From contig JACPCX010000124.1 of the NCBI GenBank assembly GCA_016184305.1, forward strand, positions 1 to 25,440: a stretch of 25,440 bases of DNA, in the 5' to 3' direction. A program made the translations under genes and the position numbers. Position 1 is the stretch's first letter; the number at the start of each line of letters is the position of its first letter. This DNA comes from Candidatus Rokuibacteriota bacterium (lineage in GTDB: Bacteria; Methylomirabilota; Methylomirabilia; Rokubacteriales; CSP1-6). Below, piece by piece: positions 1 through 18,857 of the stretch. A model generated the notes under the pieces. That model did no database searches. It was not told where the DNA came from and saw only the letters and a list, made by a program, of their open reading frames with translations.

Positions 1-99
1 GCTCAACGTACAGAGAGTACGCCTCGCGTGCGGCCGTCGGGCGCCGCCTCGCATCTGGACCTTTTTGAGCAGCCTGCGAGTTTTTCAGCAACCTGCTAG
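1..99 (-). repeat. Copy A (cut by window edge) of dispersed CTAG-flanked palindromic MITE-like element
   Basis: Reverse complement of 1-99 matches 15223-15321 with 3 mismatches. It begins at CTAG (96-99), whose TAG is the prcA stop codon. Confidence 0.9.
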
Positions 100-788
100 G
101 TGCCGGGCTCGAGCAGCTGGTGCAGGACCTCGGAGGGAATCCGGCGGAACCTCCGGCGCTCCTTGTTGCGGTCGAGCACCGCGACCTCGAGGTCCCGCTC
201 GGTGAGGGTCTTGTTCTGGGTCACCATGAGGGCGCGGACGCCGAGCTGGAGCGCCCCCGCCAGGTCGAGGCCCTCCTGGAAGTTCTCCTTGAGGTAGCGG
301 CGGATCTCGTCGGCCTGTCCGCCCATGGCCGCGAAGTTCTTCTCGTCCTCGATCGTCCCGTCGTAGAGGATGTGGTAGATCTCGTTCTTGGACCCGTTCG
401 GGTCCCCCACCTCCACCACGAGCACCTCCACCTCGAAGGGCTTGATGTCCTGGGTGAAGATGTTCCCGAGCCCCTGCGAGTAGGCGTTGGCCAGCGCCTT
501 GGCGCTCACGTCCCCGCGCGAGTACGAGTAGCCCTTCACGTCGGCGTGCCGGACCCCGGCCACGCGCAGGTTCTCGAACTCGTTGTACTTGCCCACGCCG
601 GCGAAGGCGATGCGGTCGTAGATCTCGGAGATCTTGTGGAGCAGCGTCGAGGGGTTCTCCGCCACCAGCAGGATCCCGTCGCGGTACTCGATGGTGACGA
701 TGGCCTTGCCGCGGGAAATGCCCTTGCGGGCATACTCCGCCTTGTCCTTCATCATCTGCTCGGGCGAGACGTAGTAGGGCAGCGGCAT
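96..788 (-). CDS. prcA: 20S proteasome alpha subunit
   Basis: MPLPYYVSPEQMMKDKAEYARKGISRGK...LHKISEIYDRIAFAGVGKYNEFENLR is typical of actinobacterial-type PrcA. ATG overlaps the prcB stop (TGATG); an alternative GTG lies at 791. Confidence 0.96.
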   Translation of the reverse strand: MPLPYYVSPEQMMKDKAEYARKGISRGKAIVTIEYRDGILLVAENPSTLLHKISEIYDRIAFAGVGKYNEFENLRVAGVRHADVKGYSYSRGDVSAKALANAYSQGLGNIFTQDIKPFEVEVLVVEVGDPNGSKNEIYHILYDGTIEDEKNFAAMGGQADEIRRYLKENFQEGLDLAGALQLGVRALMVTQNKTLTERDLEVAVLDRNKERRRFRRIPSEVLHQLLEPGT

Positions 789-1594
789 CACAGCCTGCCT
801 CGGTCGTTGAGGATCGCTTCGCAGTGGCGGCGGACGTCCTCGTCCGGCAGGTCGCTGATCCCCGAGCGGGTGATGGTCTTCACGGTGGGGAAGATGCCGC
901 GCATGAGGTCCGGCCCGCCGGTGCCGAGGTCCTCGTCGGCCGCGTCGAGCAGGGCCTCGACGGTGACCCGCACCGCCTCGTCCTTGCCCATGTCGCGCTT
1001 GAAGCGCTTCTTGAGCGAATCCCGCGCGTCCTTGCCGCCGGAGCCCTGGGCGAAGTAGTCGGTCTCCTCGTAGCGGCCGCCCGTCACGTCGTACTTGAAG
1101 AGCCGGCCCACGCCCGCCTTCTCGTCGAAGCCCGCGAAGATGGGCACCACCACGAGCCCCTGCATGGCCATGGGCAGGTTCACGCGGATCATCTGTCCGA
1201 GCCGGTTGGCCTTGCCCTCGAGGGAGAGGTTCTCGCCCTCGACCTTCTCGTAGTGCTCGAGCTCGGTCTGGAAGAGCCGGGCCATCTCCATGGCCGGCCC
1301 CGCCGCCCCCGCGATGCCGACGGCCGAGAGGTCGTCGGCCTTGAAGATCTTCTCGATGCGGCGGTGGGCCACCTGGTACCCCTCGCTGGCCTGGCGGTCG
1401 CCGGCCATCACCACGCCGTCCCGGTAGCGGACCGCGAGCACCGTGGTGCCGTGGGGCACGGGCGGCGGCCCCTGCGGATCCTGTCCGGTCCAGGTGGACG
1501 GTGGGGGGAGCAGGTGGGGCGCGCTCCGCCGCAGGACCTCGGAGAAGGAGGAGGTGGCGTAGTCGAAGAAGGCGGCCTGCCAGCGAGCCTCCAT
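788..1594 (-). CDS. prcB: 20S proteasome beta subunit (49-aa propeptide, catalytic N-terminal Thr)
   Basis: C-terminal part of ORF 788..3157: MEARW...PHG|TTVLAVRYRDGVVMAGDRQA, GSGG, DLGTGGPD. ATG at 1594 overlaps the dop stop (TGATG). Confidence 0.95.
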   Translation of the reverse strand: MEARWQAAFFDYATSSFSEVLRRSAPHLLPPPSTWTGQDPQGPPPVPHGTTVLAVRYRDGVVMAGDRQASEGYQVAHRRIEKIFKADDLSAVGIAGAAGPAMEMARLFQTELEHYEKVEGENLSLEGKANRLGQMIRVNLPMAMQGLVVVPIFAGFDEKAGVGRLFKYDVTGGRYEETDYFAQGSGGKDARDSLKKRFKRDMGKDEAVRVTVEALLDAADEDLGTGGPDLMRGIFPTVKTITRSGISDLPDEDVRRHCEAILNDRGRL

Positions 1595-3219: not shown

Positions 3220-5052
3220 TTACAGGTACTGGCCGGTGTTGATCAGCCGCTCGACCGCCCGCTGCTTGTCCTTGCTCTCGCCCATGAGCGGCTTCACGTA
3301 GACGATCCGCTCGCCCTTCTTGCCGGCGATCTTGGCCCAGTCGTCGGGGTTGGTCGTGTTGGGCAGGTCCTCGTTCTCCTTGAACTCCTCGCGGACGGCG
3401 TCGAGCATGTCCGCGAGCGTGATGCCCTTCTCGCTGGTCTGGATGTAGCGCTTCAGCGCGAGCTTCTTGGCCCGCCGCACCACGGACTCGATCATCGCCC
3501 CCGAGGAGAAGTCCTTGAAGTACAGGATCTCCTTGTCGCCGTTGGCGTAGGTGACCTCCAGGAAGCGGTTGTCCTCCTCGAGGCTGTACATCTCCTCGGC
3601 GGTGGCGGCGATCATGCGGTCCACGGTCGCCTGCAGGTCGCCCCCGTGTTGCCGGGTCTCGGATTCGTGGATCGGCAGCTCGGTGGTCATGTACCGGTTG
3701 AAGATGTCCACCGCCGCCGACTTGTCCGGGCGCTCGATCTTGATCTTCACGTCGAGCCGCCCCGGGCGCAGGATGGCCGGGTCGATGAGGTCCTGCCGGT
3801 TCGAGGCCCCGATCACGATGACGTTCCTGAGATGCTCGACGCCGTCGATCTCGGCCAGGAGCTGCGGGACGATGGTGGTCTCCACGTCGGAGGAGATGCC
3901 CGAGCCGCGGGTGCGGAAGAGCGCGTCCATCTCGTCGAAGAACACCACCACCGGCACGTCCTCGGCGGCCTTCTCGCGCGCCTTGATGAAGATCTCGCGG
4001 ATCTTCCGCTCGGTCTCGCCCACGTACTTGTTCAGCAGCTCGGGGCCCTTGATGTTGAGGAAGTAGCCCTTCACCTTCTCGCCGCGCTTCTCGGAGATGC
4101 GCTCGGCCAGGTTGTTGGCCACCGCCTTGGCGATCATGGTCTTGCCGCAGCCCGGCGGGCCGTAGAGCAACACGCCCTTGGGCGGGGCCAGGTGGTGCTC
4201 GCGGTAGTAGTCGGCGTACAGGTACGGCAGCTCCACCGCGTCCTTGATGGTCTCGATCTGGGCGCCCAGGCCGCCGATGTCCTCATAGCTGATGTCCGGG
4301 ACTTCCTCGAGCATCAGGTCCTCGACCTCGCTCTTCGGCAGCTTCTCCAGGAGGTAGCCGCTCTTGCCGTCCATCAGGATGTGATCGCCCACCTTGAGCC
4401 GCGCGGCGCGCAACGGGTCCGCGATGATGCTCACCTTGTCCTCGTCGGCGCGGAGCGTGACGACGGCGCGCGCCTCGTCGAGGACCTCCTTGAGGATGAC
4501 GACCTCGCCCTGGATCTCGTAGCCGGCCGCCTCGACGACGTTGAGGCCCTCGTTGAGGACCAGCTCCTGGCCGGGCTTGATCTCCTCGGGCTTGATGGAC
4601 GGGTGCAGGTTGACCTTCACCTTCCGCCCCTGCGAGAGGATGTTGACCGTGCCGTCCTCGTTGACGGACAGGTAGACGCCGTAGGTCGAGGGCGGCGCGC
4701 ACAGCTTGTCGACCTCCTCGCGAAGCGAGGAGATCTGCTCGCGCGCCTCGTAGAGCGCGTTGACGAGCTTCTCGTTCTGGTTGAAGGACTGCACGAGCTG
4801 GCGGTTTGCCTCGCGGAGCTTGTTCTCGAGGACCATGGTCTCCCTGGGCGCGTCCTCGGCCTTCTTGCGCAGCCGCACGGTCTCCGCCTCGAGCGAGCGC
4901 ACGTATGCCTGCAGGTCCTGCACCTGTACCTCGTACTCGGTGAGTCGCCGGCGATAATTCGAGTCCGTCATGGGAAGGAACTTGGACAACCCCTTCATCC
5001 CTTCGGACGAAGGCTCCCTGTTCGGGCTGGGCTTCTTCTCGAACTCCTTCAT
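3220..5052 (-). CDS. arc: Proteasome-associated AAA+ ATPase ARC/Mpa
   Basis: N-terminal coiled coil, PPSTYG, OB domains, Walker A GPPGCGKT, Walker B VFFDEMD, RPGRLD, C-terminal GQYL docking motif. Start is approximate (ATG 5052 or GTG 5061), downstream of the predicted promoter. Confidence 0.95.
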
Positions 5053-10587: not shown

Positions 10588-10731
10588 ATGCTCTCGATTG
10601 CCGACACCGTCACGGAGGTGGTCCACTGGGTGTTTCCCGAGCACGCGGGCGCCCCGGGACAGATCCACGGCGGGCGGACGATGCAGTGGATCGCCACCGT
10701 GGGGACCATATCCATTCACGAGGGAAGGTGA
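10588..10731 (+). pseudogene. Truncated hotdog-fold acyl-CoA thioesterase (47-codon N-terminal remnant)
   Basis: MLSIADTVTEVVHWVFPEHAGAPGQIHGGRTMQWIATVGT matches the V-F-P-x-H-A-N/G-x2-G-x-I-H-G-G thioesterase signature, then ends just before yebC. Confidence 0.65.
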
Positions 10732-10738
10732 GGGCATC

Positions 10739-11491
10739 ATGTCCGGGCATTCACGCTGGTCGCAGATCAAGCGGAAGAAGGGCAAGACGGACGTGCAGCG
10801 GGGGAAGCTCTTCTCCAAGATCCTCCGCGAGATCACGGTGGCGGCGCGCAACGGCGGCGGCGATCCCAAGGGCAACGTGCGCCTGAAGGCCGCCATGGAG
10901 GCGGCGCGGGCCGCGAACATGCCCGCCGACAACATCAAGCGCGCGATCCAGAAGGGCACCGGCGAGCTGCCGGGGGAATCCTACGAGGAGATCACCTACG
11001 AGGGCTACGGGCCCGGCGGGGTGGCCATCCTCCTGCAGGTGCTCACGGACAACAAGAACCGCACCGGCCCCGAGATCCGGCGCGCCTTCGAGAAGAACGG
11101 CGGGCGCATGGGCACGGCGGGGTGCGTGGCGTGGATGTTCGACCGCCGGGGCGTGATCCAGGTGGATGCCGAGCGGGTGACGGAGGACGACCTGCTGGAG
11201 AAGGCGCTGGACGCGGGCGCCATGGACGTCAAGCGGGTGGAAAAAGCTTTCGAGATCACCACGGCCCCTGATGAAATGGAACCGGTGCGGGAGGCGCTGG
11301 AGCGCCAGGGCATCCCTGTGCTGGAGGCCGCCGTGGCCATGCTGCCCCAGTCCACGGTCCGCGTGGAGGGCAAGGAGGCCTCGGTGGTGCTGCGGCTGAT
11401 CGAGGCGCTCGAGGAGCAGGACGACGTCCAGGCTGCCTACTCGAACTACGATATCCCCGACGAGGTCCTCGACGCCATCTCCGCCGCCTAG
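10739..11491 (+). CDS. yebC: YebC/PmpR family protein
   Basis: MSGHSRWSQIKRKKG, NMPADNIKRAI, YEGYGPGG, TDNKNRT, VAWMF, DDVQ. Confidence 0.96.
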   Translation: MSGHSRWSQIKRKKGKTDVQRGKLFSKILREITVAARNGGGDPKGNVRLKAAMEAARAANMPADNIKRAIQKGTGELPGESYEEITYEGYGPGGVAILLQVLTDNKNRTGPEIRRAFEKNGGRMGTAGCVAWMFDRRGVIQVDAERVTEDDLLEKALDAGAMDVKRVEKAFEITTAPDEMEPVREALERQGIPVLEAAVAMLPQSTVRVEGKEASVVLRLIEALEEQDDVQAAYSNYDIPDEVLDAISAA

Positions 11492-11641
11492 CAGGATGCG
11501 GAAAAACTCCGCAGGCCGCTCAAAAACGTCCAGATGCGAGGCGGCGAGGGAGGCGACGAGCGAGGCGGACTCGATGTACGTTGAGCGAGGAGCGACCAGC
11601 GCCGTACCTCCGGAGATGGGCGTTTTTCAGCGGCCTGCTAG
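11488..11641 (+). repeat. Copy B (diverged) of CTAG-flanked palindromic element
   Basis: CTAG-CAGGATGCGGAAAAA-ctcc-GCAGGCCGCTCAAAAACG...CGTTTTTCAGCGGCCTG-CTAG. The first CTAG contains the yebC stop. Confidence 0.85.
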
Positions 11642-12170
11642 GGCGCTGCGCGTGATGGGGGTGGACCCCGGGCTCGTGGACACCGGTTTCGGCGTCCTCG
11701 AGGCGGGGCCCGGCGCCGTCACGGTCGTGGACGCGGGCGTCATCAGCACCTCCGCCAGCCAGTCCCTGGAGGCGCGGCTCAACGCCATCTACCGCGCCAT
11801 CCACCGCCTCATCCAGGCCCGCGAGCCGGGCCTCCTCGTCGTGGAAGACCTCTACACGGAGTACAAGTTCCCGCGGACGGCGATCCTCATGGGCCATGCC
11901 CGCGGCGTGATCTACCTCGCCGCCCGTCAGCTCGGCGTGGCGGTGCTGGCGCTCGCGCCCGCCGAGGTCAAGCGCGCCATCGCCGGCAACGGGGCCGCCG
12001 GGAAGGCGCAGATGCAGCGGAGCGTCCAGACTCTCCTGGGGCTTGCCGAGCCGCCGCGTCCGTCGCATGTGGCCGATGCCCTCGGGCTGGCTGTCACCGG
12101 CATGGGGCGGGTCACCGGACGGATCCCGACGGGCCGGGGCCGACGGCCCGCGGCGCGGGGGGCCTCATGA
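11616..12170 (+). CDS. ruvC: Holliday junction resolvase RuvC (start uncertain: 11496/11574/11616 within the repeat, or 11652/11655)
   Basis: RVMGVDPG, VVED, MGHARGVI, EVKRAIAGNGAAGKAQM, HVADAL. Confidence 0.92.
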   Translation: MGVFQRPARALRVMGVDPGLVDTGFGVLEAGPGAVTVVDAGVISTSASQSLEARLNAIYRAIHRLIQAREPGLLVVEDLYTEYKFPRTAILMGHARGVIYLAARQLGVAVLALAPAEVKRAIAGNGAAGKAQMQRSVQTLLGLAEPPRPSHVADALGLAVTGMGRVTGRIPTGRGRRPAARGAS

Positions 12171-12829
12171 TCGCCTCGCTCCGGGGCAGGCTGCGCGCGC
12201 GGCTCGAGGACCGGGTGATTCTCGAGGCGGCCGGCGTCGGCTACGAGGTGTTCCTGCCGCCCGTGACCCAGCGCGCGCTGGCCGGCGCGTCGGCGGCAGG
12301 GGGCGACGGCGCCGACGAGATCTCGCTGGCGATCCACTACCACGCGACGCAGAACCAGCCGCGCCCCGTGCTCATCGGATTCACCTCCGAGCTCGACAAG
12401 GAGTTCTTCGAGAAGCTCATCACGGTGAAGGACGTGGGCCCCATGGTGGCGGCCCGCTCGCTGGCGGCCCCGGTGGGCGAGATCGCCGCCGCCATCGCCT
12501 GCCAGGACGAGGGGTATCTCCGCCGGCTGCCCGGCATCGGGCCCCAGAAGGCGAAGAACATCGTGGCCCAGCTCCAGAGCAAGGTGGCGAAGTTCGCGCT
12601 GCTCGCGGCCGAGGAGTCCGCCGGGGAGGCGCGGCCGGCGCGGCCTGCGGCGCCTCTGGATGAAGACGGGCTGCGCGGCCTGGTCTTCGAGGTGCTGGTG
12701 AAGCAGCTCCAGCACCGGCCCAGCGAGGCGGCCGAGCTGATCAGCCGGGCGCTCAGCCGCCGGCCCGACGTCACGACGCCCGAGGAGCTGTTCGACGAGA
12801 TCTATCGCGGGAGCGGAGGCCGGACGTGA
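12167..12829 (+). CDS. ruvA: Holliday junction branch migration protein RuvA
   Basis: MIASLRG, GVGYEV, LIGF...EKLITV..VGP, Hh[10 protein letters not shown]; lies between ruvC and ruvB. Confidence 0.92.
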
Positions 12830-13860
12830 GCGACGAGGCGCACGTCATGAGCCGGGTGGCGCTGCCCGAGGAGGCGCAGATCGAGCGCCAGCTCCGCCCG
12901 CAGCGCCTGGACGAGTACGTGGGCCAGCGCGCGACGGTCGAGAGCCTGCGGATCTCGGTGGAGGCGGCCCGCCAGCGGGGCGAGCCTCTCGACCACGTGC
13001 TCCTCTCGGGGCCCCCCGGCCTCGGCAAGACCACGCTCGCCACCATCATGGCCAACGAGATGGGCGCCCAGATGGTCACCACCGCCGGTCCCTCCCTCGA
13101 GCGGGGCGGGGACCTCATGGGCATCCTCACCAACCTGGGCGACCGCGACGTGCTCTTCATCGACGAGGTCCACCGGCTCCCGCGCATCGTGGAGGAGCTG
13201 CTGTACCCGGCCATGGAGGACTTCGCGCTCAACTTCGTGATGGACAAGGGGCTCAACGCCAAGAGCATGCGCATCCCGCTGCGCCCCTTCACGCTGGTGG
13301 CCGCCACCACGCGGCCGGGGATGCTCTCCTCCCCGCTCCGGGAGCGTTTCGGGATCTTCCACCACCTGGATTTCTACGACGTGGAGGACCTGACGTCGAT
13401 CATCCTCCGGTCGGCCTCCATCATCGGAGCCTCCATCGATCAGGGCGGGGCCGGCGCCGTCGCCCGCCGCTCCCGCGGGACGCCACGCATCGCCAACCGC
13501 CTCCTGCGCCGCGTCCGCGACTACGCCCAGGTGAAGGGGGACGGGGCGGTGACGGCCGAGGTCGCGCGGGACGCGCTGGACCGCGAGGGGGTGGACCAGG
13601 AGGGGCTCGACCGGCTGGATCGCCGCTTCCTCGGCGCGATCATCGAGCAGTACGGGGGCGGCCCGGTCGGCCTCGAGGCCATCGCGGCCACCATCAACGA
13701 CGAGGCGGAGACGCTGGCGGAGGTGGTGGAGCCGTTCCTCCTGAAGATCGGCTTCGTCGTGCGCAGCCCGAACGGGCGGAAGGTCACGGCGGCGGCCTAC
13801 GCCCATCTGGGCCACGCCCTCCCCGCCTCCTCCACGGGCCAGCGCGAGCTTCCGCTGTGA
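12826..13860 (+). CDS. ruvB: Holliday junction branch migration helicase RuvB
   Basis: [67 protein letters not shown]. Confidence 0.97.
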
Positions 13861-14084
13861 CGGACCTCGGGAAAATCCTCGTGGGTTTCGGGGTCGTCAT
13901 GATAGTCCTGGGAGGAATCCTGCTCCTGGCGGGAAATCTCTCAGGGAAGGTGCCATGGATCGGACGGCTGCCCGGGGACATCTACATCGAGCGCGGCACC
14001 TGGCGCTTCTACTTCCCGCTGGCGACCTCCGTCATCATCTCCATCGTCCTCACGCTGCTCTTGTCGCTCTTCGGCCGCCGTTAG
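13857..14084 (+). CDS. DUF2905 family small membrane protein
   Basis: [20 protein letters not shown] signature with two TM helices; usual position after ruvB. Confidence 0.88.
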
Positions 14085-14089
14085 CCCGC

Positions 14090-15226
14090 CGCCGACACGT
14101 CCGGCTGCTCGTCGCTCTCGCCCTCGTCGTGCTCGTGTGTCTGGGGGCGCGCCCGGCGCTCGCCGGAGGCGAGATCCGCGTGGCGCTGGTCGACGGGGTC
14201 CGGACGGTGGATCTGGGCGGCGGTCCATTCGCCATCCAGGACGCGGCCGGCCAGCCGCTCACGACCGAGCAGCCCACGTGGATTCGCCTGGTCCCGGTCA
14301 ACGGGAGCGTGGAAGTTCGCGGCCTGCGCGCCGACCGCGTACGCGCCGGGACCATCCGCGTGGTGGGCGCCAACGGCGGGGCCATGCGGTGGAATGGCCG
14401 CGACTACCCCGGCACCCTGGACATCCTCCGCGCGGGCGACGGACTCCTGGTGATCAACGAGCTGCCGTTCGAGGACTACCTCATGGGTTCGGTCAAGGCG
14501 GAGGCCGGGGAGCGCATGCCGCCCGAGATGCTCAAGGCCCAGGCCGTCGTGGCGCGGACCTACGCCGCCTTCCACCGCCGGCTGAACGCCGGCAAGCCCT
14601 ACCAGATCGTCGCGGCCACCGCCCACCAGCAGTACGCGGGCCAGGTCGGCCCCGACTCGCCGATCTGGGCGGCGGTGAGGGAGACGGAGGGGCAGGTGCT
14701 CCTCTGGGAAGGCGACCTCTTCCCGGCCTTCTACCACACCGACAGCGGCGGCCACACGGAAGACCCGCGCGCGGTGTTCGCGGCCTCGAACATGCCGGCG
14801 CTCCGGCCGGTGCGCATCGAGTTTCCCTCGGAGTCGCCACATCACCTGTGGGCGCTGGACCTGCCGCTCGCCGACCTCAGCGCGCTGCTCCGCAAGGGCG
14901 GCGTCTCGGTGGGGCGCATCGTGGCCCTCGAGGTACTCGAGCGAAGCGTGTCGCTGCGCGCGGCCCGGATCGCCGTCCGCGGCACGAGCGGCACGACCGT
15001 GCTCCGCGGCAACGACTTCCGCCGGCTCGTGGGCTACGACACGCTCAAGAGCACGCTGTTCGCCGTGGCCGTGGATGGGGCCCACGCCCGCTTCTCGGGC
15101 CGCGGCTATGGCCACGGGGTCGGCATGGACCAGGCGGCCGCCAGGACCATGGCCCAGCTCGGCTACTCGGCCCGCCAGATCCTCGAGTACTACTACCCGG
15201 GCGCGGTCTTCTCCACCCTCCCCTAG
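14090..15226 (+). CDS. SpoIID/LytB-domain protein (lytic transglycosylase-like); start codon unresolved
   Basis: Signal-peptide-like N-terminus; YPG..INEL..EDYL..V.AE, LKAQAVVARTY, QQYAG, AFYH..SGG.TE, LKST, GRGYGHGVGMDQ, ILEYYYPG. Confidence 0.88.
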   Translation, partial: RRHVRLLVALALVVLVCLGARPALAGGEIRVALVDGVRTVDLGGGPFAIQDAAGQPLTTEQPTWIRLVPVNGSVEVRGLRADRVRAGTIRVVGANGGAMRWNGRDYPGTLDILRAGDGLLVINELPFEDYLMGSVKAEAGERMPPEMLKAQAVVARTYAAFHRRLNAGKPYQIVAATAHQQYAGQVGPDSPIWAAVRETEGQVLLWEGDLFPAFYHTDSGGHTEDPRAVFAASNMPALRPVRIEFPSESPHHLWALDLPLADLSALLRKGGVSVGRIVALEVLERSVSLRAARIAVRGTSGTTVLRGNDFRRLVGYDTLKSTLFAVAVDGAHARFSGRGYGHGVGMDQAAARTMAQLGYSARQILEYYYPGAVFSTLP

Positions 15227-15374
15227 CAGGTCGCTGAAGAACTCGCAGGCTGCTCAAAAAGGTCCAGATGCGAGGCGGCGCCCGACGGCCGTACGCGAGG
15301 CGTACTCTCTGTACGTTGAGCGTGCGGCCGAGGGCGCCAACGAAGCAGATGGGCCTTTTTCAGCAGCCTGCTAG
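15223..15374 (+). repeat. Copy C (complete) of CTAG-flanked palindromic element
   Basis: CTAG-CAGGTCGCTGAAGAA-ctc-GCAGGCTGCTCAAAAAGG...GTACTCTCTGTAC...CCTTTTTCAGCAGCCTG-CTAG. The first CTAG contains the spoIID stop. Confidence 0.9.
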
Positions 15375-15454
15375 GGCCTCGCCGCCCGTGACCATTTCCT
15401 GGCTGGTAGCCGATCTCCGTCACGCTGCGGCCGGGGAGCTGCGGCATGCGCTGG

Positions 15455-16510
15455 CTACGATGACACCATCTCGCGGATGGCGGCGGCGATGTCGGCCGGG
15501 CCCGGCAGCACGGCGTCCTCCAGCGGGGGCGGGAAGGGGACGGGGACGCCGGGGTTGCCGAGGCGGCGCGGGGCCGTCCTGAGCGCGCCGAAGGCCCGCT
15601 CCGTCACCAGCGCGATGACCTCGCTCTGGATGCTGCACGTGAGATAGGCCTCGTCCACGACCAGCAGGCGGCCGGTCTTCCGCACCGATGCGATGATGGT
15701 CTCGCTGTCCAGCGGGACCAGCGTGCGGGGGTCGATGACCTCGGGGGAGACGCCCTCCGCCGCCAGCGCTTCCGCCGCGGCCAGCGCGTGGTGCAGCGCG
15801 CAGAGCGTCGCCACCACCGTGATGTCGGTGCCGGCCCGCCGCACCGCGGCCTGCCCGAAGGGGACCAGGTAGTCGGGATCCTTGAACCCGGGCGGCGCCG
15901 GCCAGCGGGTGCGGTAGAGTGCCTTGTGCTCGAAGAAGAGCACCGGGTTGTCGTCGCGGATGGCCGATTTCATCAGGCCCTTGGCGTCCGCGGCCGTTGC
16001 CGGCAGCGCCACCTTGATCCCCGGGACGTGAGCGAACCACGAGTAGAGCGTCTGCGAATGCTGTGACCCCGCGCCCTGGCCGCCGCCGCAGGGGAGCCGG
16101 ATGACGAGCGGGACCTTGACCTGGCCGCCGGTGAGGTAGTGCAGCATCGCGGCCTGGTGGGTGAGCTGGTCGATGGCGACGGAGAGGAAGTCGCCGAACT
16201 GGAACTCCACGATCGGGCGCATCCCGCCCATGGCCGCCCCCACCGCCGCCCCCACGACGGCCACCTCCGAGCAGGGCGTGTCGCGGACCCGCTCCGTGCC
16301 GAACTCCGCGGCGAGGCCGCTCGTGACGCCGAAGGGCGGGGCGCCCGCGATGTCCTCCCCCATCTGGAACACCGAGGGGTCGCGCCGCATCTCCTCGCGC
16401 ATGGCCTCGTTGATGGCGCCCCTGAAGCTCGGCCAGTCGCGCTCGGCGGGGGGGGCCGGGCCCCCGGGCCTGAACAGCCGCCGATCGAACACGCGTCCCT
16501 CCGCTGTCAT
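15455..16510 (-). CDS. TPP-dependent 2-oxoacid/acetoin dehydrogenase E1 beta subunit
   Basis: MGEDI, FGTERVRDTPCSE, GMRPIVEFQFGDF, GSQHSQ, DNPVLFFEHKALY, VIDPRTLVPLD, SVRKTGRL. ATGA overlap with the alpha-subunit stop. Confidence 0.9.
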   Translation of the reverse strand: MTAEGRVFDRRLFRPGGPAPPAERDWPSFRGAINEAMREEMRRDPSVFQMGEDIAGAPPFGVTSGLAAEFGTERVRDTPCSEVAVVGAAVGAAMGGMRPIVEFQFGDFLSVAIDQLTHQAAMLHYLTGGQVKVPLVIRLPCGGGQGAGSQHSQTLYSWFAHVPGIKVALPATAADAKGLMKSAIRDDNPVLFFEHKALYRTRWPAPPGFKDPDYLVPFGQAAVRRAGTDITVVATLCALHHALAAAEALAAEGVSPEVIDPRTLVPLDSETIIASVRKTGRLLVVDEAYLTCSIQSEVIALVTERAFGALRTAPRRLGNPGVPVPFPPPLEDAVLPGPADIAAAIREMVSS

Positions 16511-18356: not shown

Positions 18357-18857
18357 ATGCCAAGCCAAAGCTCGCGCCGGTACTGGGTCAATTCGCGTCG
18401 CCATACTTCGTTACTCGGTCGCCCGCGACGCTCAACGTACAGAGAGTACGCCTCGCGTCGCTGGCTCCCTCGTGCCTCGTCTGGCTCGCAACTCGAACCG
18501 GCCGGCACTCTCCTCATCGAGCGCAGGATCGAGCGCGCGGAGCTCGTGCGCCTGGCCCGGCTCTTCGGCGACATGATCAAGTTCGTGGTGGACGTGGAGC
18601 GGGGAGTCATCGCCATCGGCGGTGAGCTGCACGCCGACGCGGAGCAGCTCCTCCTCGAGGCCGGCAGCCGCCAGGGGGACCTCTGGGGAGCCAACTACTA
18701 CCCGGGACGGGGGCGGGACGAATGCATCGAGTTCACGTCGCTCATCAATATCCGGCCCTCGCAGGGGAACCCCGGCATGGAGGTGCAGGACCCGGCGCTG
18801 CGGAAGCGGATCCGCGCGCTGACCGGGGCACTCGTCGGCGACGGGGAGGATCTCTGA
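18357..18857 (+). CDS. DUF5674 family protein (start uncertain: ATG 18357, GTG 18546 or ATG 18573)
   Basis: MIKFVVDVERGVIAIGGELHADAEQLLLEAGSRQGDLWGAN...IEFTSLINIRPSQGN matches my recollection of DUF5674. Confidence 0.75.
   Translation: MPSQSSRRYWVNSRRHTSLLGRPRRSTYREYASRRWLPRASSGSQLEPAGTLLIERRIERAELVRLARLFGDMIKFVVDVERGVIAIGGELHADAEQLLLEAGSRQGDLWGANYYPGRGRDECIEFTSLINIRPSQGNPGMEVQDPALRKRIRALTGALVGDGEDL
18376..18506 (-). repeat. Copy D: same hairpin core as A-C but with different outer arms (no IS-like ends, no CTAG)
   Basis: 31-nt identity ACGCTCAACGTACAGAGAGTACGCCTCGCGT (18428-18458) with the reverse complement of copy C, plus shared CTTCGTT and GCCTCG..TGG blocks. Confidence 0.8.

Follow-up and report, generated by a model that had tools for sequence, protein, structure and literature searches.

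Is the long hairpin that recurs along a 25,440-nt contig of a Candidatus Rokuibacteriota bacterium (JACPCX010000124.1, assembly GCA_016184305.1; this whole stretch is called the window) a structured nucleic acid in its own right, or is it a mobile DNA element? The initial annotation recognized four copies, A to D, and, from the covarying arms and the strand-specific tandem G.A mismatches of copy C (15223-15374, plus strand), favored an RNA or single-stranded DNA motif rather than a neutral miniature inverted-repeat transposable element (MITE). We compared the copies in the source genome (G000, a 3.2-Mb metagenome-assembled genome (MAG) of 239 contigs and 70% G+C) with those in 41 related genomes (G001 and so on), of which G041 is a near-complete long-read genome and all others are fragmented MAGs. 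The family is mobile and inserts at CTAG-like sites, with the tetramer or its central TA left on both sides; most probably, it represents a family of non-coding, non-autonomous, MITE-like mobile DNA elements of uncultured Rokubacteria/Methylomirabilota.

Insertion at CTAG and remodelling in place

The element is small (150-215 bp) and has no coding capacity; the open reading frames (ORFs) 15075..15374 and 15268..15582 that cross copy C come from a mechanical list of high-GC frames. Its architecture is a CTAG, a terminal repeat of ~18-20 nt, an imperfect palindrome of 120-185 nt that ends in the inverted terminal repeat, and a second CTAG, and it occurs in a short form of ~150 bp and a long form of ~215 bp. 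The outer-left repeat CAGGNTGCTGAAAAAC matches the right end GTTTTTCAGCNGCCTG. A set of 144 copies was used for strand stability, gene context and stop-codon overlap; the terminal inverted repeats, and hence both ends, are identifiable in 68 of these.

Comparison of orthologous sites provides the clearest evidence for mobility. The site of copy B is precisely empty in G002 and G003, where a single CTAG is found (...GCCGCCTAGGGCG... and ...TCCGCCGCCTAGGGCG...) against CTAG-element-CTAG in G000. The site of copy C is filled in G001, is empty in G002 and G003, where it reads ...CAGTAGGG..., and has been occupied independently, in the opposite orientation, in G006. On a larger scale, sites were mapped between G001 and G000 from 40 G001 regions and the loci L011 and L018, with flanks mostly 95-99% identical. 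Among the 44 element intervals of G001, 37 could be mapped to one G000 contig; 11 proved to be clean empty sites, three retain short remnants and 20 are filled or partly filled, and three were set aside (L255, a rearranged site; L290, an overlapping flank match; and a sister-family fragment in L011 at 3944-3996). The clean empty sites read CTAG in seven cases, ATAG in two, GTAG in one and CTCG in one.

The tetramers at the two ends of the 68 two-ended copies are CTAG/CTAG in 22, identical but different from CTAG in four (CTAT, CCAG, CTAA, TTAG) and unequal in 42. Unequal outer bases, such as a left GTAG combined with a right CTAG, fit a duplication of 2 bp, and the four duplicated variant tetramers fit one of 4 bp; because the target is palindromic, duplication of CTAG and of its central TA are indistinguishable. 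The contrast drawn by the initial annotation with a MITE therefore fails: the copies are small and non-coding, have terminal inverted repeats and a duplicated CTAG or TA, and their sites are precisely empty in relatives, so that of the features by which MITEs are recognized only a known autonomous partner is missing.

The choice of target also accounts for where copies are found. CTAG is ~13-fold depleted in G000, with 661 occurrences against ~8804 expected from base composition, 70 of them at elements and 193 at called stop codons. Since CTAG is rare and contains the stop codon TAG, the copies that survive mostly adjoin or overlap the stop codon of a gene, with either of their ends: in 62 of the 144 copies a gene on the opposite strand terminates at the right-end TAG, and in the two-ended subset a stop codon is overlapped by the left (sense) end in 24 copies and by the right (antisense) end in 29. 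Gene contexts in the full set were co-directional for 54 copies, convergent for 25 and divergent for one. As a side observation, the called genes of G000 end in TGA 1497 times, in TAG 666 times and in TAA 132 times.

Copies are gained, lost, inverted and reduced to stubs, and their internal modules are exchanged, between congeneric genomes. At 14 orthologous sites filled in both G001 and G000, with flanks ~97-98% identical, we observed one orientation flip (L253/C170), four changes of tip length (short versus long or intermediate), four replacements of AACGAAG by GTACCTCCG in the 3' arm and two reductions of tandem dimers to single copies; two copies are near-identical, with 2 mismatches over 202 nt in one and 3 over 215 nt in the other. 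Other copies have lost their core and survive as stubs that read CTAG-terminal repeat-GCAGGCTG-CTAG. The elements mark very recent genome change between close relatives.

The hairpin, its covariation and its strand asymmetry

Copy C folds, from the base upwards, through GCAGGCTGCT/AGCAGCCTGC, a C.C mismatch, AAAAAGG/CCTTTTT, CCA-GA-TGC/GCA-GA-TGG, GGCGCCC/GGGCGCC and CGC-GA-GGCGTAC/GTACGTT-GA-GCG to a UCUCU loop. Every one of these segments, as listed in the initial annotation, is present both in the sequence and in the minimum-energy fold. Folded as RNA, the plus strand of 15223-15380 reaches -104.1 kcal/mol (z -9.18), which none of 200 shuffles equalled, and the minus strand of the same region folds more weakly (-88.7 kcal/mol, z -7.25).

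The claim that the two arms covary holds in a shuffle test. We aligned 70 short copies from many genomes (69 of them distinct) and paired their columns according to the fold of copy C: standard pairs fill 88.4% of cells against 81.9% in shuffled alignments, 30 of 50 stem pairs have changed on both sides against 17.2, and the covariation score is 0.197 against 0.098, values which in each case none of 500 shuffles reached; with the partners slid by 1-3 columns the score does not exceed 0.074. RNAalifold retains 33 pairs, of which 19 show double changes. This test is not phylogeny-aware, and related sequences can beat shuffles without any structure. Both paired changes ascribed to copy B are present (CCGCT/AGCGG and AAAAACG/CGTTTTT); the second, a G-to-C/C-to-G double change at alignment columns 17/130, occurs in one of the 70 copies. 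The AAAAA and TTTTT tracts around the inner stem (columns 12-16 with 131-135) are conserved at ~90% or above, and their innermost pair covaries.

The strand asymmetry was likewise borne out. The strand that carries the GA tandems (the GA strand) has the lower folding energy in 142 of the 144 copies with RNA parameters (mean -99.5 versus -86.6 kcal/mol) and in 137 with DNA parameters, the advantage amounting to 13 and 4 kcal/mol, respectively. Of the 2x2 internal loops predicted, 315 of 423 place GA opposite GA, and CCA-GA-TGC/GCA-GA-TGG is nearly invariant on the arm that the search pattern leaves unforced (G in 83/83, A in 80/83). Across subfamilies the arms stay complementary, and the tandem G.A, C.C and G.T oppositions are conserved. 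Strand-specific selection on single copies was sought as an excess of G.T over A.C and was rejected, the counts outside the three fixed wobble positions being 73 and 87; since G.T is no commoner than A.C, the asymmetry belongs to the design of the family and does not reflect purifying selection on each copy.

Does selection on a folded strand keep the arms complementary, or does exchange between copies? The family is well suited to a direct test of this question, because it combines clear covariation, conserved strand-specific non-canonical pairs, rapid remodelling in place and the lack of an identifiable transposase. Under the second alternative the fold would not be selected at all; complementarity would result from the overwriting of copies by a few sources (concerted evolution), with palindromic subfamily founders. 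The swapped modules and tips, each at four of the 14 orthologous sites within flanks ~97-98% identical, argue for this, as do single-copy mismatches that lack a strand preference and, among 32 copies that share the most frequent middle stem (10 of G000 and 22 of other genomes), a core that varies much less than the outer-left repeat and the flanks. Frequent exchange between copies adds to the uniformity of the core and so makes covariation a weaker argument for selection. What it leaves unexplained is the recurrence of identical tandem G.A, C.C and G.T oppositions at equivalent positions of subfamilies with different neighboring stems; the founders themselves must therefore have kept a strand-specific design, and the private double change of copy B is absent from the donors sampled. 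We regard a complete absence of selection on the fold as possible, yet somewhat unlikely.

Function, mechanism and the missing enzyme

A second alternative, compatible with mobility, is that copies were co-opted to act, in either orientation, as intrinsic terminators or as hairpins that protect mRNA 3' ends. The element offers a GC-rich stem with A5 before and T5 after it on either strand, the conserved tracts and covarying innermost pair described above belong to this layout, and copies are located at the 3' ends of genes (co-directional contexts 54, convergent 25, divergent one), where a position exactly on the stop codon could alter mRNA 3' ends; canonical terminators are, moreover, scarce, with none in 4.4 kb. 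Against this, the stem exceeds the usual length by far, the T tract is base-paired to the A tract as part of an extended helix, and the 3'-end location is already explained by the TAG/CTAG target together with the loss of gene-disrupting insertions. A consensus scanner for terminators and promoters made no call on the element and found no site in 11300-15700 of the window, which is weak evidence given that the scanner is limited to short perfect stems; in six RNA runs only small shares of a 1.2-kb query were present. We consider co-option tentative, with the chances on the whole against it.

Turning to the means of mobilization, the family has its closest analogues in IS630-type MITEs as regards the target, and in ERIC and Correia elements as regards a whole-length hairpin near gene ends. 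IS630/Tc1-mariner MITEs such as MITEEc1 likewise are small, lack coding capacity, end in inverted repeats and are dispersed in many copies. IS630 is said, going by the title of a 1991 study by Tenzen and Ohtsubo that PMC2170065 cites, to prefer the TA within 5'-CTAG-3'; all the clean empty sites with CTAG are consistent with insertion at, and duplication of, this TA. The family differs from such MITEs in its whole-length palindrome, its conserved strand-specific mismatches and an additional terminal repeat, in direct orientation, at the left, and in that we found no IS630-type transposase with matching ends. IS5-family elements duplicate a 4-bp YTAR, and the identical variant end tetramers of four copies (CTAT, CTAA, TTAG, CCAG) fit a duplication of this length; the difference is that no transposase matching PF01609, PF13359, PF13340 or PF13586 was found in the copy-rich genomes tested. 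ERIC/IRU sequences are enterobacterial imperfect palindromes of ~127 bp that lie in transcribed intergenic regions near gene ends and vary in size through internal insertions. Judged by description only, they share with the present family a palindrome of ~125 nt near gene ends and size variants; the present family differs in phylum and sequence, and its target site, target duplication and recent turnover are clear. Correia elements (CREE/NEMIS) of Neisseria are 100-155 bp long, duplicate TA and form hairpin RNA with reported effects on termination and mRNA processing, and have inverted repeats at their ends only; we know of no preference of theirs for CTAG or stop codons. The likeness, again by description only, lies in size, TA duplication and hairpin, the difference in the whole-length palindrome of our family.

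As for published descriptions, we found no paper on a Rokubacteria/Methylomirabilota repeat or on a MITE at CTAG or stop codons; PMC11602168, a large census of MITEs, names MITEEc1_IS630, and its supplement may list the family. In PMC7002104, CTAG occurs solely as a methylation motif. The Rfam comparison proposed in the initial annotation was equally negative: no family matched the window, none matched the element in eight further loci, and the best sub-threshold score was that of mir-H3 (16.1 bits against a threshold of 70, E 8.8).

We propose that the family is mobilized by a trans-acting enzyme with either an IS630-like choice of target (TA within CTAG) or an IS5-like 4-bp duplication. Two processes would then keep the arms complementary, selection on those source copies that are able to transpose and frequent exchange among copies, and the strand asymmetry would act at the DNA level, where copies with the stronger GA hairpin on the strand exposed during lagging-strand synthesis might be lost or deleted more often; the A5-stem-T5 layout may, in addition, make copies putative orientation-independent terminators or 3' hairpins.

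Several observations sit uneasily with a MITE-like family moved in this way. Thirty DDE_3 (IS630-type) loci examined in relatives lack the terminal repeat of the element, a DDE_3 search of G000, G001, G002 and G006 gave no match, and G041, with 164 matches to the terminal repeat, has none to PF13358, PF01609, PF13359, PF13340 or PF13586. Variation is much greater in the outer-left terminal repeat than in the core, which is odd if a transposase has to recognize that repeat; the end tetramers are unequal in 42 of 68 copies, and a duplication length of 2 or 4 bp is hidden by the palindromic target; and conserved G.A, C.C and G.T oppositions are not explained by double-strand cut-and-paste. Finally, the strand bias, set out below, is confounded with gene direction, the discordant cases being split 2:2 in G041 and 6:4 in G000. 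Six pairs of repeats in G041 that lie 1-2.3 kb apart revealed no partner, the Pfam-matched ORFs that they enclose being housekeeping enzymes. No cognate autonomous element with the same ends was found; the genomes except G041 are fragmented, so its absence is not shown.

The orientation of copies is biased with respect to local GC skew: 34 of the 44 copies in G041 (binomial p 0.0004) and 20 of the 29 in G000 (p 0.06) have their GA strand on whichever strand is locally richer in C. With 44 and 29 copies, replication and transcription are inseparable as causes of this bias, and the hairpin may have a strand-specific role at the DNA level. In one version of such a role, the GA-strand hairpin with its conserved sheared G.A tandems, C.C mismatch and G.T wobbles would be the true substrate of an unrecognized mobilizing enzyme that cuts at CTAG. 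This reading would explain why no IS630- or IS5-type transposase was found in five copy-rich genomes, one of them a near-complete long-read genome, why pairing is kept across subfamilies and in a sister family with different termini, and why orientation tracks the DNA strand rather than genes. If true, it would amount to a new kind of hairpin-guided mobile element; we judge it decidedly unlikely.

A related alternative, that of a single-strand DNA hairpin element whose right CTAG is the cleavage site of a strand-specific enzyme, HUH/RAYT-like or other, draws on strand-specific non-canonical pairs conserved across subfamilies with different stems, on the lack of a DDE partner in five copy-rich genomes, on the orientation bias with respect to local GC skew and on a RAYT-like HUH gene in G000. 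This gene (C13:34221-35117, minus strand; L190:961-1860) encodes a 299-aa Y1 transposase-like protein with an extra C-terminal part, which is intact in G002 (where a contig end cuts it), G007 and G015 and broken in G003 and G028. None of 17 Y1_Tnp loci has an element within ~1.5 kb, and the HUH protein occurs in four of 17 element-bearing relatives (broken in two) and in seven of 24 element-free ones, so that the two do not co-occur. The GA strand lies mostly on the C-rich strand, which by textbook reasoning on GC skew would not be the lagging-strand template that IS608-type elements use, and the four cases of a variant tetramer repeated at the two ends agree with a genuine duplication of the target. 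We consider a single-strand element of this type very unlikely. A REPIN/RAYT system was also tried as a candidate and rejected, since the RAYT-like gene is neither flanked by the element nor co-occurring with it. REPINs reportedly are hairpin-forming doublets with pairing arms, mobilized by RAYT transposases, for which a single-strand model of mobility has been put forward; the present family differs in having no GTAG head, a target duplication and an unlinked RAYT-like gene.

The weakest alternative is a cis-acting structured RNA on the sense strand of the upstream gene, acting through its GA form in 3'-end processing or stability: the covariation, the GA tandems and the more stable GA strand are real, and in the window copies A, B and C are all GA-sense for the gene whose stop codon they overlap, as the initial annotation had noted, but this pattern does not extend to the family, in which the GA strand is sense in 26 and antisense in 28 of the co-directional cases among the 144 copies, in 10 and 19 for the called genes of G000 and in two and 17 in G041, stop codons are overlapped at the antisense end (62/144) as well as at the sense end (24/68), one site is occupied in opposite orientations in G000 and G001 (L253/C170) and another in G000 and G006, and no Rfam family matches. 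With orientation showing no preference for the sense strand, an outcome that the initial annotation had itself named as refuting, and with copies flipped in place, the processing signal first proposed is contradicted, and a cis-acting sense-strand mRNA signal is, to our mind, exceedingly unlikely.

Copies in the window and distribution of the family

Copy C is of the short form, and its 152 nt (15223..15374, plus strand) comprise the full element with both flanking CTAGs. The left CTAG (15223..15226) contains the TAG stop codon (15224-15226) of ORF 13955..15226 and is followed by the outer-left terminal repeat CAGGTCGCTGAAGAACTC (15227..15244), the inverted mate of the right end; the hairpin core of 127 nt (15245..15371) holds the A5-stem-T5 layout, three tandem G.A sites, one C.C mismatch, the G.T wobbles and the UCUCU loop, and the right CTAG (15371..15374) is the duplicated target. 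Copy B (11488..11641, plus strand) has a variant, purine-rich middle segment, and its TAG at 11489-11491 ends ORF 10598..11491. Copy A (1..99, minus strand) is truncated by the start of the contig; it is 97% complementary to 15222-15321, and ORF 96..791 (minus strand) ends at the TAG within its CTAG at 96-99. These three belong to one family. The fourth, copy D (~18379..18499, minus strand), belongs instead to a sister family with different termini (GGTACTGGGTCAA...), ~10 loci in G000 and an interior and tip ~74% identical to those of the main family, so that the hairpin interior is common to elements with different ends. The mechanically listed ORF 11496..12170, which runs through copy B, is over-extended; a frame with a GTG start lies ~10 nt after this copy (window 11645-11700), and its translation, conserved in G002, G003 and G006, is presumably that of a RuvC-like protein.

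The family is present in 17 of the 41 related genomes and is patchy by genus. BLAST with copy C returned 77 loci in G000, and anchor matching gave at least 46 full copies. These numbers are far above chance, as a reversed control pattern had 0-1 matches, against 164 for the true pattern in G041. A pattern scan of public MAGs, taking one genome per species, found at least 120 stretches, nearly all under titles naming Rokubacteria, Rokuibacteriota, Methylomirabilota or NC10. Several contigs terminate within element copies, which break the assemblies of a phylum of uncultured bacteria abundant in soil and groundwater. A search of a plasmid collection gave no match to the element, and among viral contigs there was a single match to the core motif (L239, an IMG/VR contig of 138 kb filed as viral). 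Among the matches listed, many copies are in MAG records titled Sulfotelmatobacter, Acidoferrum, Limnocylindria or Nitrosocosmicus (L027, L029, L037, L041 and others of record DASPOZ01; also L040, L065, L066 and L089); such titles from other phyla suggest mislabelled or mixed bins, or transfer across phyla.

Two copies elsewhere have unusual neighbors. In G000, at C108:20651-20862, the right CTAG lies 2 nt upstream of an ATG (CTAG-CC-ATG) that begins an ORF starting MCGIVGYIG, which we take to be glmS-like; with this spacing, any ribosome-binding site would lie inside the element. In G028, a copy at 1506-1631 of L008:1416-1994 directly adjoins a cluster of three tRNA genes.

The full copies of G000 divide by size into 17 short (core ~105-125 nt), one intermediate and 28 long (~175-185 nt), the long form having an insert of 60-68 nt at the hairpin tip. 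This insert is ~80% like a separate purine-rich unit of 60 nt that forms tandem arrays of 2-4 units and was found by BLAST in 36 further places, among them C18:32864-32980 (also 33437-33474), C142:867-1044, C76:60899-61022, C168:14706-14798 and C15:3730-3851. One such array lies in frame within an E2 acyltransferase-like ORF, which has a lipoyl-domain sequence at its start, and adds units of 20 residues to a linker.

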